A stretch of DNA of 38,723 nucleotides from Candidatus Aenigmatarchaeota archaeon (GCA_046760225.1 JBHIDR010000004.1:1-38723); one strand, 5' to 3'; positions 3,492-24,830 are shown, numbered from the stretch's first letter. Notes: a model not told the origin generated them from the letters alone. A program made the numbers and translations.

Positions 3492-4529
3492 TTACTCGGT
3501 TCCAACCTTTTTAAGCATTTCCTTTGGTATCCATTTCTCTCCTGCAACTGGTATTTTCTCACCACATGGGCACTTCATGTCCTTTAGAAGGAACTCGGTC
3601 ATCCTTGGGCCATATCGCCCTATCACCTCTTGACCGCATTTTGGACAGTAAGTTGACTCGTACTTGCTACCAGGCACGTTTCCAAGGTAAACGTAATTCA
3701 GTCCTTGTTCCTTTGCTGCCCTGTAGGCCTTCTCCAGAAGCGAAACACTGGTAGTCGGGGCCCTCATCTTGTAGGAAGGGAAGAACTGGATGAGATGGAA
3801 AGGTGTATCAGGCCCCAGGTTCTCCACAATCCACCTGCTTATTTTTTTTATATATTCTTCCTTTGATTCTGGCATTATAAGATTCGTGATCTCTATGAAA
3901 ATCTTGTTTTTCTTGTAGGCAAGCATTGCATCATAAATGGGCTGGGCATCTGGCACAAGAGAGTATTCTTTGTAAAATGCCGGCTCAAGGGAAGATTTCA
4001 GGTCTATCACAGCAGCATCAAGGAAAGTGGCTGCTTTCTTTATTACTTCTGGTGGTGTGTAACCGTTTGTCACAAAAACATTGTAGAGACCATTCTTCTT
4101 TGCAAGCAGGGCTGTATCATGCGCATACTCAAAGAATATTGTTGGCTCAGTATAGGTGTATGCAATTCCCTGCAGATTGTTCTGCTTTGCAATCCTTACA
4201 AGTTTCTCAGGTGGCGCGTCCTCTCCATGGATATCTGTCCATTCCTGGGAAAGTATGTAATTGCAGCAGAAACTACAACGAAAATTGCAGCCCACTGTTG
4301 AAACAGAGAGATTGAGTGAGCCAGGTGCGAAGTGAAAAAGGGGTTTTTTGAGTATGCTATCAACGTTCATTGCAGCTACCTTTCCATAGACAAGGGAGTA
4401 CAGCTTTCCTCCCTTGTTCTGCCTGACCCTGCAGGTGCCTGTCTTGCCTTCGCTTATCACGCAGTACCTGCAGCAGAGCCGGCACTGTATGCCTCCGGTC
4501 ACAGACTTCCAGAACATTGCCTCTTTCAT
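3492..4529 (-). CDS. amrS: AmmeMemoRadiSam system radical SAM enzyme (PflA-like)
   Basis: N-terminal CRLCCRYC..G.CRVR, radical SAM GCNFRCSFCCN, YTYTEPT, VTNGY, C-terminal YVYLGNV..TYCPKCG. Confidence 0.85.
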   Translation of the reverse strand: MKEAMFWKSVTGGIQCRLCCRYCVISEGKTGTCRVRQNKGGKLYSLVYGKVAAMNVDSILKKPLFHFAPGSLNLSVSTVGCNFRCSFCCNYILSQEWTDIHGEDAPPEKLVRIAKQNNLQGIAYTYTEPTIFFEYAHDTALLAKKNGLYNVFVTNGYTPPEVIKKAATFLDAAVIDLKSSLEPAFYKEYSLVPDAQPIYDAMLAYKKNKIFIEITNLIMPESKEEYIKKISRWIVENLGPDTPFHLIQFFPSYKMRAPTTSVSLLEKAYRAAKEQGLNYVYLGNVPGSKYESTYCPKCGQEVIGRYGPRMTEFLLKDMKCPCGEKIPVAGEKWIPKEMLKKVGTE

Positions 4530-4589
4530 AATATTAATATAGATGTCACTCAGATAAACTTAAATTTTACGAGGCACAAAATAATTTAT

Positions 4590-5390
4590 ATGAAGATAAA
4601 TGATGATTTGTCGGAATTAATAGGTGCAATTATTGGAGATGGAAATTTGTATGACAAGAGACCCTCTTTTGTTGAAATAAGTGGAGATCCCAATCTTGAT
4701 TCACATTATTTCAAATCAATTCTAGTACCTATTATAGAAAAAGAACTTAATTATACTCCCAAATTATTTCATCATAGTGGCGCATTAAGACTAAGAATAA
4801 ATAACAAGAAATTCGTCCTATTCCTAAAGGGAATAGGAATACCAAGCGGAAAATATAAGACCAAGGGTGTTTTAATTCCTGATATTATTCTAAGTTCTTG
4901 GAAAAATACCAAACGATGTATAAGAGGTATATTTGATACTGATGGATGTATTCACTTTGATAAAAGAAATGTTTATAGAAAGCCATATCCTAGGATAGAA
5001 TTACACATGTCTAATCACAGATTAATAAGACAGATACAAATTGTCCTTGATAAACAGGGAATTTATACCAAAACCTCCAAGAAGAAAAACTCATTTTCAC
5101 TTTATTTTAACGGTCCTAAAGGTACCAAGAGCTTTCTTTCAAATGTAGGATTCTCCAACCTAAGACATATAAGTAGAATAAATAAATTCTATCCAGACAT
5201 GATATCGTTGAATTGTGCCAATGCCCCGGTGGCTCAGCCCGGTAGAGCGGCTGACAATTGGCCGAATCTCGTAACTAGGCAAGAAAACAGCAAGTCGGGG
5301 GTTCAAAAGGGGAGAAACTACGTTTCTCCCTCTACCCTCTCCCTTGAGGGTGGCCTGAAATTCCCTCCCGGGGCTCCAATCTACAAATAG
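4590..5390 (+). CDS. free-standing two-motif LAGLIDADG homing endonuclease-like protein
   Basis: Motifs LIGAIIGDG and IRGIFDTDG; AT-rich. Start moved to ATG 4590 because the track's start at 4332 overlaps amrS antisense. The last ~55 codons run through tRNA-Thr. Confidence 0.8.
   Translation: MKINDDLSELIGAIIGDGNLYDKRPSFVEISGDPNLDSHYFKSILVPIIEKELNYTPKLFHHSGALRLRINNKKFVLFLKGIGIPSGKYKTKGVLIPDIILSSWKNTKRCIRGIFDTDGCIHFDKRNVYRKPYPRIELHMSNHRLIRQIQIVLDKQGIYTKTSKKKNSFSLYFNGPKGTKSFLSNVGFSNLRHISRINKFYPDMISLNCANAPVAQPGRAADNWPNLVTRQENSKSGVQKGRNYVSPSTLSLEGGLKFPPGAPIYK
5223..5378 (+). tRNA. tRNA-Thr(CGU) with three introns (30/31: 5254-5266; 37/38: 5274-5285; 59/60: 5308-5361), encoded CCA
   Basis: Spliced: GCCCCGG TG GCTC AGCCCGGTA GAGC G GCTGT CTCGTAA ACAGC AAGTC GGGGG TTCAAAT CCCTC CCGGGGC TCCA (77 nt, U73). 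BHBs: GAG-CGGC-TG|A..GCCG-AA|T-CTC and TTCA-AA|A..TGAA-AT|T; the 37/38 motif is relaxed. Confidence 0.9.
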
Positions 5391-5465
5391 AAAAACCTCA
5401 TTACTAACCTTTCCATATTTATCACTGATAGATAGTTATTTAAGCACTAGTAAGAAATTGTAATT

Positions 5466-6251
5466 ATGGACTATGGTGACTTTGAGGATGATGCACAGAG
5501 AATCAGAAAAGCATTAATTCCGAAGATTATTGACAAGGAATTAAGGGGTTATATAGTATTACCAAAACCGTGGAAGCCGACCATTTCTGCCATTGTTTAT
5601 TCTCACTGGAATTTGAAGGAAGAAAGCAAATACCGCTCCCCTGATGGCAAAACACATTTGGATGAGGTAGAGGAAGAATTGGAATCCAGAGGGTTGGTTA
5701 AGCCTGCCCGTTCAATTTCAGTCAGGGTGGCCTCACGTGCTGCACTTTATAACTGGCTGGCATCATGGGGTGAATTGCCTGACCATCTAACTGCATACGA
5801 TAGAAATGGTGAGGTTATCCCAAGATCTGAAGTACAGTTTTATACCGATGATATGGTTGTTGAAGGAATGGAGCAAGATATGCGCATTAACATAGAAAAT
5901 GCATCCGACTTGAAAGATGTTCTAAAGGTTTTCAAAGAACGAGGTCACAAATTCAAAATCGATGATGACTGGGATTTCTCAAACGGGAAAATGGAAGAAG
6001 AGGCAGAAAATGCTTTCTATTTTGCAGAAGCAATACCTTTGATTGCCTTATTTGTAGAAGAAGCACCAAAGAGAGGTTTCGACAACGTGAATTATACATA
6101 TGCTAAACGCGGTAAAAGCGAACTGGGCAGCTATGTTTCAATCAGCAATTTAGCTGCTTCGAAATGTTTCTCAGAATTGGGCTTTGTTCCTAAAACGGTA
6201 ACTCGGTTGGTTAACAGAACCTTTTCGAAGTTCATTGCCGGGATTTATTAG
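5466..6251 (+). CDS. hypothetical protein
   Basis: 261-aa ORF with TATA-like TTTAAG upstream; no recognisable motif. Confidence 0.65.
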   Translation: MDYGDFEDDAQRIRKALIPKIIDKELRGYIVLPKPWKPTISAIVYSHWNLKEESKYRSPDGKTHLDEVEEELESRGLVKPARSISVRVASRAALYNWLASWGELPDHLTAYDRNGEVIPRSEVQFYTDDMVVEGMEQDMRINIENASDLKDVLKVFKERGHKFKIDDDWDFSNGKMEEEAENAFYFAEAIPLIALFVEEAPKRGFDNVNYTYAKRGKSELGSYVSISNLAASKCFSELGFVPKTVTRLVNRTFSKFIAGIY

Positions 6252-6594
6252 CAAGTCTCTTTTTTATCTGTCCTAAATCTTCTACGCTTACATAACCTGC
6301 AAAATAGGGCGCGGTGGGACCATGAAGGCGGGTACGCTCTTCTAATTCATCCGCTTCCGAGCGAGTGTAGAGGCCGAACCCCGCATTGCGAAATTCCATT
6401 CCGTAACGCATACCCCAAACGCCTATAACGCACTCTTCGCCGCGTTCTTTCGACTCATTTTCCAACATCCTCTCTATTTCATCCAAATAAGCGGTATCAA
6501 CAGATTTCAAGTCCTTCAATTCGACAGGTTTTCGGGCGTTAAACGTCTTCAAAGGGTTATAATTACGAGGTTTCTTAATGACTGCTTCAGACAT
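6232..6594 (-). CDS. hypothetical protein
   Basis: ORF from ATG 6594 (MSEAVIKKP...); codon style differs from core genes. Confidence 0.55.
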   Translation of the reverse strand: MSEAVIKKPRNYNPLKTFNARKPVELKDLKSVDTAYLDEIERMLENESKERGEECVIGVWGMRYGMEFRNAGFGLYTRSEADELEERTRLHGPTAPYFAGYVSVEDLGQIKKRLANKSRQ

Positions 6595-6737
6595 AATTAA
6601 TATTGTAACTCTAATGTTTTTAAAATCATCATATCTCAATTACGTCAAATTCAAGACTTATAATTAGGTGACCGGGCGACCTCAGAAAGGAGGGATTAGA
6701 CTTTTAAAACCTCAGGCACATCTATTCTTTGATTGAT

Positions 6738-7040
6738 ATGGCAGAATGGATAACATTTGTGAAAGGGGAGAACGTCAGGAAGGCTGAGGGCATCCTGAAG
6801 AAGGATTTTGATGTTGCAGCAAAGCAGTCAATAACAGTAAGGGATGCAAAGGCACTTGGAATAGAGGCTGAAGGCAGCTTCTTCTATATCAAGGGCAGTA
6901 ATGAGGGAGTGGCAAGGTGCAAGGAGCTCATAAAGGATCTTGTAGCTGAGATAGAGCAGGAGAAACTGGACAAAGCTAAGGAAGAAATTGAGAAAGAGTC
7001 AGAAGCTGCTGCAAGCGGTATGGGCGGGATATTCAAATAG
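6738..7040 (+). CDS. conserved archaeal hypothetical protein
   Basis: 100-aa ORF from ATG 6738 with QSITVRDAKALG and C-terminal AAASGMGGIF; core-like codon usage. Confidence 0.75.
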   Translation: MAEWITFVKGENVRKAEGILKKDFDVAAKQSITVRDAKALGIEAEGSFFYIKGSNEGVARCKELIKDLVAEIEQEKLDKAKEEIEKESEAAASGMGGIFK

Positions 7041-7043
7041 AAA

Positions 7044-7132
7044 TGGTGCGCCCGGCGGGATTCGAACCCGCGTTACAAGCTTGGGAAGCCTATCCGAAAT
7101 TTCTTTGGATCCTACCACTAGATTACGGGCGC
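7044..7132 (-). tRNA. tRNA-Gly(CCC) with 15-nt intron at 29/30 (7090-7104), encoded CCA
   Basis: Spliced: GCGCCCG TA ATCT AGTGGTA GGAT C CAAGC TTCCCAA GCTTG TAAC GCGGG TTCGAAT CCCGC CGGGCGC ACCA. BHB ATCC-AA|A-GAAATTTC-GGAT-AG|G. Confidence 0.92.
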
Positions 7133-8757: not shown

Positions 8758-8844
8758 GGGCCCATAGTCTAGTGGTAGGACAATACCCTTACAGAGGCAT
8801 TAGGATAGGTATAGGTCCCAGTTCGATTCTGGGTGGGCCCACCA
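8758..8844 (+). tRNA. tRNA-Val(UAC) with 13-nt canonical 37/38 intron (8794-8806), encoded CCA
   Basis: GGGCCCA TA GTCT AGTGGTA GGAC A ATACC CTTACA|A GGTAT AGGT CCCAG TTCGATT CTGGG TGGGCCC ACCA; central helix CTTA/TAGG. Confidence 0.93.
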
Positions 8845-23183: not shown

Positions 23184-23283
23184 TGGTGGGCCGGGGGAGA
23201 ATCGAACTCCCGATCCCTACCGTGTCAGGGTAGTGTCATTTGGTGAAGCTCCTGAAGAAGCTTTACCACTAGACCACCAGCCC
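23184..23283 (-). tRNA. tRNA-Val(GAC) with a ~23-24 nt D-loop intron (~23239-23263), encoded CCA
   Basis: GGGCTGG TG GTCT AGTGGTA[..]TGAC A CTACC CTGACAC GGTAG GGATC GGGAG TTCGATT CTCCC CCGGCCC ACCA; intron hairpin AGCTTC-TTCA-GGAGCT; exact junction ambiguous by 1-2 nt. Confidence 0.9.
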
Positions 23284-24634: not shown

Positions 24635-24830
24635 TGGTGGGCGGGATGAGATTTGAACTCACGACTTCTAGACCGGTTTGGATTCCAGACCGGTTCACTA
24701 GTTGGCCTCGCCACTAGCTTTTCCAGCCAGTGCCTTATAAGACTTGCACGCAGTGCTTAGCGCTCTAATTGCCAAACGCTTGGGTTTCCTGGCTGAGCTT
24801 TGCGGGTCCGTTCGCACGAACTACCCGCCC
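24635..24830 (-). tRNA. tRNA-Ile(UAU) with five introns: 8/9 (24800-24822), 19/20 (24769-24787), 29/30 (24744-24757), 37/38 (24704-24735), 45/46 (24666-24695); encoded CCA
   Basis: Removing 23+19+14+32+30 nt from 196 nt gives a 78-nt cloverleaf: GGGCGGG TA GCTC AGCCAGGTTA GAGC G CTAGT CTTATAA ACTAG TGGTC GTGAG TTCAAAT CTCAT CCCGCCC ACCA. Each junction sits in a BHB-type motif. Confidence 0.88.

Follow-up and report, generated by a model that had tools for sequence, protein, structure and literature searches.

The window analysed here is a 38,723-nt stretch of DNA from Candidatus Aenigmatarchaeota archaeon (GCA_046760225.1 JBHIDR010000004.1:1-38723), in which an open reading frame (ORF) encoding a LAGLIDADG protein runs, without a stop, through a complete tRNA-Thr(CGU) gene. 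We propose, at a probability of roughly 0.7, that this ORF is a selfish, free-standing LAGLIDADG homing endonuclease gene that lies between the promoter and the first nucleotide (+1) of the tRNA gene and belongs to a clade tied to tRNA-Thr. The host is a small DPANN-type archaeon, and its genome assembly (851 kb in 83 contigs, 43.9% GC) is 83% complete. For comparison, 80 related loci were taken from species genomes. The 14 closest (L009-L022), at 43-54% identity to the window endonuclease, stem from records whose titles read Micrarchaeota, Aenigmatarchaeota, Nitrososphaerota/Thaumarchaeota, Undinarchaeota or simply 'archaeon'. Orthologues were surveyed in 40 related genomes, and the protein alignment holds 30 sequences, the window protein and 29 homologues. 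The elements of the locus on which the argument turns are these:

4590-5390, + strand: full open frame, from ATG at 4590 to TAG at 5388-5390, 266 codons, the last 55 being tRNA and 3' flank
4590-5222, + strand: LAGLIDADG homing endonuclease core, 211 codons, the entire folded protein as predicted
5223-5378, + strand: tRNA-Thr(CGU) gene with encoded CCA; exons 5223-5253, 5267-5273, 5286-5307 and 5362-5378
4530-4589, unstranded: 60-nt spacer with TATA-like boxes at 4530-4542 and 4553-4569, containing a 19-mer at 4548-4566
3492-4529, - strand: amrS, AmmeMemoRadiSam radical SAM enzyme (TIGR04337, 277.5 bits against a cut-off of 220; Pfam Radical_SAM)

A close orthologue of the endonuclease is present in one of the 40 relatives, and none was found in the genome of the same genus or in the five of the same family. 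The locus itself is conserved: amrS, divergently transcribed, is the left neighbour of tRNA-Thr, and this synteny is kept in relatives. A sequence-only reading of the window had proposed comparing the amrS-tRNA-Thr interval in relatives that lack the ORF, and the comparison revealed empty sites, in which amrS, a spacer of 36-40 nt with two TATA-like boxes and tRNA-Thr follow one another (G009, G010, G015, G017, G018, G020 and the same-genus G001, whose tRNA-Thr has a single 42-nt intron). Patchy presence together with empty sites in close relatives is as expected of a mobile (homing) element. The position of insertion is visible in genus g19. Three of its genomes are empty, with a 38-nt spacer and then tRNA +1; the fourth (G028, identical to L010 at the locus) has the same layout and a 38-nt spacer, with the endonuclease ATG at the place of tRNA +1 and the tRNA directly after the endonuclease ORF. 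Because the ATG replaces +1 behind an unchanged spacer, the cassette was inserted between the promoter and tRNA +1.

The endonuclease gene of the window is intact, and from its sequence and structural model the product is predicted to be a monomeric, single-chain LAGLIDADG enzyme with two motifs and nuclease activity. The motifs are LIGAIIGDGN (with D17) and IRGIFDTDGC (with D118), and the protein scores 35.6 bits against Pfam LAGLIDADG_3 (PF14528; cut-off 22.5). D118 is invariant in the 30 aligned sequences, and D17 is replaced by Asn in five of them. The AlphaFold2 model built with the family alignment (predicted template modelling score 0.80) has a predicted local distance difference test (pLDDT) score no lower than 95 as far as about residue 212, falling below 50 at residues 222-257 and 262-266. 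Its predicted order of secondary-structure elements is that of the pseudo-dimeric alpha-beta-beta-alpha-beta-beta-alpha fold, and its Foldseek matches include I-Tsp061I (E = 3.5e-12), PI-PfuI and I-DmoI. The 29 aligned homologues are 196-229 amino acids long and end at about residue 208-212 of the window protein, which is the tRNA start; in the alignment, several of their C-termini resemble translated tRNA 5' ends. Because the homologues and the confident part of the model both end at the tRNA start, 4590-5222 encodes the complete enzyme, and the tail that the tRNA adds is predicted to be a disordered appendage. Comparison of homologue C-termini also brings out a small feature at the junction:

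5217-5222, + strand: six additional bases, GCCAAT, separating the Asn-Cys codons conserved in the family from tRNA +1; they may be a small duplication of the first bases of the tRNA

The missing stop is not an assembly slip, because Logan contigs of four DNA runs, all from one study that is possibly the source of the assembly, match 4300-5700 without an indel. Their sole difference over this interval is one G>A at 4340 in X3, and no empty allele was found in the four runs examined. The earlier observation that the frame has no stop before tRNA-Thr is thus borne out, both by translation and by these contigs. Separately, homologues P0002, P0004, P0005, P0006 and P0033 carry GNGN for GDGN in motif 1 and, to judge from this substitution, may be nickases or inactive copies.

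The association with tRNA genes extends across the family. A tRNA-Thr gene stands at the 3' end of the ORF in all 14 closest loci, with anticodon CGT in 12 (in L016 on the opposite strand), TGT in L012 and GGT in L022. Removal of introns one segment at a time followed by ARAGORN was noisy; it supported Thr(cgt) at five loci and not at L022, whose tRNA was solved by hand. The ORFs end in different ways:

L009, L015, L018 and L022: TAG at U8-A9-G10 of the tRNA
L012, L017, L020 and L021: TAG in the D-arm
L010: own TGA, 2 nt before the tRNA
L014: read-through past the whole, intronless tRNA
L011, L013 and L019 (thaumarchaeal): own stop, then a spacer of 44-75 nt
L016: own stop, ahead of the opposite-strand tRNA-Thr

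Because the position of the stop varies so freely, it appears to be under little selection. In L017 the tRNA 5' end is near-identical to that of the window and is read in the same frame, yet the ORF stops at the D-arm TAG; where L017 reads TAG the window reads CAG, with a compensating D-stem change alongside. Across all 80 loci, a same-strand tRNA start called by ARAGORN lies within -100 to +80 of the ORF stop in 43 (expectation, about 0.009 per locus), and the stop falls inside the tRNA in 26. Both counts are lower bounds, because ARAGORN misses multi-intron tRNAs. In the open full-text literature we found no description, for archaea or for candidate phyla radiation (CPR) bacteria, of LAGLIDADG genes docked on tRNA genes, and such docking is apparently both widespread and undescribed as a class.

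Other LAGLIDADG ORFs of the window genome also meet tRNA genes. On contig C72, a LAGLIDADG_3 ORF with an N-terminal helix-turn-helix (L110 162-908, - strand) runs into tRNA-Pro(GGG) and ends at TAG at U8-A9-G10, and on C16 another (L111 487-1425, - strand) reads 86 nt into an intron-bearing tRNA-Gly(UCC). An ORF on C1 (L115 353-1105, - strand), assigned to LAGLIDADG by its motifs and its similarity to the query, not by Pfam, runs into a long-arm tRNA and ends at TAA in the D-loop. On C3 (24967-25736; L112 968-1737), ARAGORN calls a tRNA-Tyr(GTA) with a 693-nt intron at 37/38, and this intron holds a LAGLIDADG_3 ORF of 222 amino acids (L112 1017-1685, + strand; Pfam E = 7e-13); we know of no description of an archaeal tRNA intron that harbours an endonuclease gene.

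A subfamily of about 330 amino acids with an N-terminal extension (L023, L024, L027, L030, L033 and L035) is encoded directly downstream of a complete tRNA-Thr(CGU), and its genes are followed by a tRNA 3' stump consisting of the T-arm and the acceptor 3' strand (both by eye). These cassettes look as if they carry a replacement tRNA end. A stump of the same kind, again seen by eye, follows the complete tRNA in L010, L012 and L015. The sequences of the stumps hint at breaks near the T-arm.

The tRNA-Thr gene of the window is interrupted by three introns, and a potential stop spans the start of the second:

5254-5266, + strand: intron 1, 13 nt, at tRNA positions 30/31; its removal shifts the ORF frame
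5274-5285, + strand: intron 2, 12 nt, at 37/38 (equally 5275-5286 at 38/39); frame kept
5308-5361, + strand: intron 3, 54 nt, in the T-loop at 59/60; frame kept
5272-5274, + strand: latent TAA, formed by U36-A37 and the next A, in frame solely after removal of intron 1

In the unspliced window the gene was missed by ARAGORN and by Rfam at its gathering threshold; the joined exons come to 77 nt, which ARAGORN folds into a perfect tRNA-Thr(cgt) cloverleaf. Intron 3 fits, by inspection, a bulge-helix-bulge, with a central helix of 4 bp (5302-5305/5356-5359), bulges of 3 nt each (5306-5308 and 5360-5362) and the T-stem below. Inspection found no such motif for introns 1 and 2, which we regard as introns because the cloverleaf is restored without them and homologous inserts occur in relatives: inserts of 12-13 nt at the site of intron 1 in G009, G020 and L018, and an intron 2 homologue at the same position in G020. 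Intron 3 is present in three copies in the genome (window 5308-5361, C1:59042-59095 and C3:28198-28245; 94% identity over 48-54 nt), of which the C1 copy has a compensatory change in the central helix, and the same metagenomes have further near-identical copies on other contigs. For two of the three genomic copies, the tRNA that holds the intron has a LAGLIDADG gene upstream. We considered the introns as a shield against the endonuclease and dropped the idea because they are not enriched beside it; by eye, they occur in 8 of 15 endonuclease-linked tRNA-Thr genes and in 7 of 11 endonuclease-free CGU alleles.

Within the 156-nt pre-tRNA (CCA included) the ORF frame has no stop, and the other two frames have two and four; the read-through claimed earlier is therefore real. 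Computation of the frame likewise confirmed that removal of intron 1 creates an in-frame stop regardless of intron 2, as had also been claimed: the protein then ends in RAAVS ahead of TAA 5272-5274, with introns 2 and 3 spliced or not. Read-through alone is not improbable, because 15% of mononucleotide shuffles leave all 52 codons of the pre-tRNA open and, of the 60 combinations of tRNA gene and frame in the window genome, 16 are open throughout. Relatives free of the endonuclease carry homologous introns (intron 1 in G009, introns 1 and 2 in G020), so the frame may have been open since the gene arrived, and to judge from these sequences the intron may predate the endonuclease at the window locus. 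The alternative offered by the sequence-only reading, that introns removed a usable stop, fits better than a stop made by splicing on purpose. The splicing-dependent TAA is most likely an incidental by-product.

The second TATA-like box of the spacer ends 21-24 nt ahead of the endonuclease ATG. Read by eye, the TATA-like boxes ahead of 12 tRNA genes of this genome end 21-25 nt before +1, a fixed spacing that suggests nearly leaderless tRNA transcripts, notwithstanding the presence of an RNase P RNA in the genome (113 bits, C8:10565-10841). A further element lies inside the ORF:

5180-5191, + strand: TATA-like AATAAATAAATT in the ORF tail, at -43 to -32, ending 31 nt before tRNA +1 (by eye)

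The nearest clear TATA-like element had previously been placed at about 4559-4566. A box is indeed present there, but it is not the only one, AATAAATAAATT lying inside the ORF. The box ahead of the ATG and the RNase P RNA make co-transcription of ORF and tRNA plausible, together with a non-stop mRNA produced by RNase P.

The spacer also contains the 19-mer ACTCAGATAAACTTAAATT (4548-4566), just upstream of the endonuclease ATG. It has an exact match in G010 (L108 1501-1519), a genome of another family, where it lies just 3' of tRNA-Thr and upstream of a small extra ORF. The 19-mer is unique in each of these two genomes and was found exactly nowhere else in the 42 genomes of the order that were searched. 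In both the window and G010, a start codon lies 21-24 nt past its TATA-like part. Beyond the 19-mer itself, no further sequence is shared around the two sites, and it may in part reflect promoter consensus.

The explanation we favour is the following. The mobile cassette would encode the full enzyme of 211 amino acids, mostly without a stop of its own, and translation would end at any stop that the tRNA DNA offers. In the window, the CAG in the D-arm and the 13-nt intron 1 leave no in-frame stop, so that the frame runs by accident through the 156-nt pre-tRNA. The gene would be transcribed, probably into a leaderless mRNA, from the position at which empty alleles have the tRNA promoter; because transcription from there would read on into the tRNA, the ORF would be a translated 5' leader of the pre-tRNA. 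An RNase P cut at 5222/5223 would free the tRNA, and the mRNA left behind would lack a stop; ribosomes on the uncut precursor would produce a form of 266 amino acids, or one of 223 if intron 1 has gone. Cleavage of tRNA-Thr loci that lack the endonuclease gene would allow the enzyme to spread, and by analogy with SegB of phage T4 its DNA target is probably in or next to tRNA-Thr. As far as sequence comparison goes, there is good support for a selfish endonuclease in a tRNA leader. We are doubtful of the stronger proposal of promoter capture by the gene, from an essential tRNA of which no second copy was found, with tRNA processing (RNase P versus intron 1 splicing) setting the product. A search of the genome, 83% complete, with a crude stem-loop pattern found no second tRNA-Thr(CGU), its one match being a false one in coding DNA.

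Several observations weigh against this explanation or limit it. Co-transcription and translation of the ORF are both things that we infer from the DNA, and AATAAATAAATT could be an internal tRNA promoter. The insertion point in the window cannot be drawn as exactly as in g19, because the spacer is 60 nt and not 38. The identities of the tRNA exons (64/74 to G001, 65/74 to G020 and 64/74 to L018) do not reveal if gene and tRNA came together. No stump was found on either side of the insert: alignment gave no tRNA 5'-end match in the 300 nt that precede the ORF, either in the window or in 10 relatives, with scores no higher than the 95th percentile of shuffles, and no 3' stump downstream of the window tRNA, although these alignments are weak tests that also missed the stumps seen by eye in L010, L012 and L015. 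Not all members of the family need be active, because Asn replaces the first catalytic Asp in 5 of 30, and the explanation gives no account of how an allele that bears the endonuclease escapes self-cutting.

The most serious alternative is that the last endonuclease codons (5180-5191) hold a separate promoter for the tRNA, so that the two genes are expressed independently and their overlap is a matter of packing. We regard this as a credible though not the probable reading. The box at -43 to -32 is AT-rich and TATA-like, and in relatives, too, the Arg-Ile-Lys/Asn codons that the family conserves are AT-rich. However, it ends 31 nt from +1, against the 21-25 nt measured by eye at the 12 other tRNAs, G028 shows nothing TATA-like at the usual distance, and read-through from upstream would still be expected without a terminator. 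By eye, no oligo-T terminator lies between the ORF core and the tRNA. This, together with a promoter spacing suited to a leaderless ORF-tRNA transcript, the RNase P RNA and the correct frame arithmetic, would also suit a reading in which the three outputs (266 amino acids unspliced, 223 after splicing of intron 1 and a non-stop product after RNase P) are a selected feature coupled to tRNA processing. We nevertheless consider such selection very improbable. Stop positions are haphazard in the 14 closest loci; the intron-bearing L009, L018 and L022 stop at U8-A9-G10, before any intron; L014 reads through a tRNA that has no intron at all; the tail is predicted to be disordered and open frames over tRNAs are common; and homologues of introns 1 and 2 occur in G009 and G020 without the endonuclease. 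These same facts speak against the stop created by splicing as a designed feature, which was part of the inference made in the sequence-only reading. The other part of that inference, a selfish LAGLIDADG gene in a tRNA leader, stands on the empty sites, on genus g19 and on the presence of a close orthologue in only one of 40 relatives.

Two further readings deny that the gene is an active mobile element. It could be a dead relic, neither expressed nor active, whose frame is open by chance; its lack of a stop of its own and a GC content slightly below that of the genome (0.384 over 4001-5000 against 0.439) fit this idea, which we judge improbable given 211 codons without a frameshift or stop, intact motifs with both Asp residues and a very confident model. 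It could instead be a domesticated LAGLIDADG host protein, either a DNA-binding regulator of the tRNA gene or a folding or splicing helper for the multi-intron pre-tRNA. Foldseek matches the model to LAGLIDADG maturases and WhiA as well (2ab5, rank 10; 8dy9, rank 16), the tie to one tRNA identity is tight and some homologues miss the first catalytic Asp. Against this, a close orthologue was found in only 1 of 40 relatives and in none of the same genus or family, which keep the tRNA, many endonuclease-bearing tRNAs have no intron, and the window protein keeps both catalytic Asp residues, so that domestication seems to us the least likely of the readings considered.

The surroundings of the locus show another insertion and other interrupted tRNAs. 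Relative to G001 there is a second insertion next to the tRNA:

5379-6720, unstranded: second insertion, about 1.3 kb, between tRNA-Thr and a conserved small-protein gene at 6729-7040

It carries an ORF at 5466-6251 (+ strand, 261 amino acids) and another at 6232-6639 (- strand). Neither has a match in Pfam or PHROGs, and the first, which alone was compared with NCBIfam, has none there; the other 41 genomes of the order hold no homologue of it. Other intron-bearing tRNAs of the window are Gly(CCC) at 7044-7132 (- strand) and Val(TAC) at 8758-8844 (+ strand); Val(CAC) at 23184-23283 (- strand) has a 26-nt insert in the D-loop, and at 24635-24830 (- strand) ARAGORN calls a tRNA-Phe with a 106-nt intron. 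Many tRNAs of the genome are probably hidden by multiple introns, because ARAGORN finds just 21.

The locus thus presents a cellular LAGLIDADG gene between a tRNA and its promoter, without a stop of its own, in a family whose clades each keep one tRNA identity across several archaeal phyla. If co-transcription is correct, this would be a compact route to expression of a selfish gene that the host cannot switch off, and a natural case of a protein-coding pre-tRNA leader. Were promoter capture also true, silencing of the selfish gene would cost the cell its tRNA-Thr(CGU). Such an arrangement would amount to a new kind of link between host and parasite, in which tRNA maturation is coupled to a mobile nuclease, and it might be general to tRNA-docked LAGLIDADG genes of DPANN archaea and CPR bacteria. 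The locus also bears on annotation, because gene callers extend such ORFs through tRNAs and tRNA finders miss multi-intron tRNAs, both of which occurred here. tRNA-docked enzymes may, in addition, supply nucleases with specificity for tRNA genes.

Homing endonuclease genes are known in introns and inteins and, as free-standing genes, in phages. The archaeal rRNA-intron-encoded enzymes I-Tsp061I and I-DmoI share the fold, size class and two motifs per chain of the window protein. Its model matches I-Tsp061I (2dch) with a target template modelling (TM) score of 0.76 in Foldseek and I-DmoI with one of about 0.7; a profile search of PDB sequences finds 2dch at E = 1e-4, and sequence identity is 16-19%. 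Their genes lie within bulge-helix-bulge rRNA introns, whereas the window gene lies outside the RNA gene, upstream of tRNA +1. It is not intron-encoded in the manner of I-DmoI: the ORF core precedes +1, and no upstream 5' exon or stump was found. Archaeal tRNA genes with several introns at non-canonical positions are known from Thermoproteales and ARMAN-type archaea. The window tRNA resembles them in its short introns at 30/31, 37/38 and 59/60, and the three genomic copies of its T-loop intron are as expected of transposing tRNA introns. To our knowledge, no upstream protein gene that reads through a multi-intron pre-tRNA has been reported. Integrase-borne elements use tRNA genes as landing sites, and the duplicated tRNA 3' fragments (the stumps) beside some relatives of the window gene recall them. 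The window insert, in contrast, has no integrase and no att-type direct repeats that we could see, and consists of a single nuclease gene of 0.63 kb at the 5' end of the tRNA.

Nawrocki et al. (2018; PMC6125680) deal with group I introns. Closer to the present case is SegB of phage T4, reported as a free-standing endonuclease in the T4 tRNA gene cluster with a recognition site that includes the conserved T-psi-C stem-loop motif (PMC2330249). The segB gene and its flanking tRNA genes are reported to be preferentially inherited, through intron-less homing (PMC2330249). SegB is a GIY-YIG enzyme of a phage, whereas the window enzyme is a LAGLIDADG protein of a cellular genome, and SegB is not known to be fused to a tRNA 5' end or to borrow a tRNA promoter or stop. 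As a free-standing endonuclease gene beside tRNA genes, segB is nonetheless the best functional analogy for the window gene.

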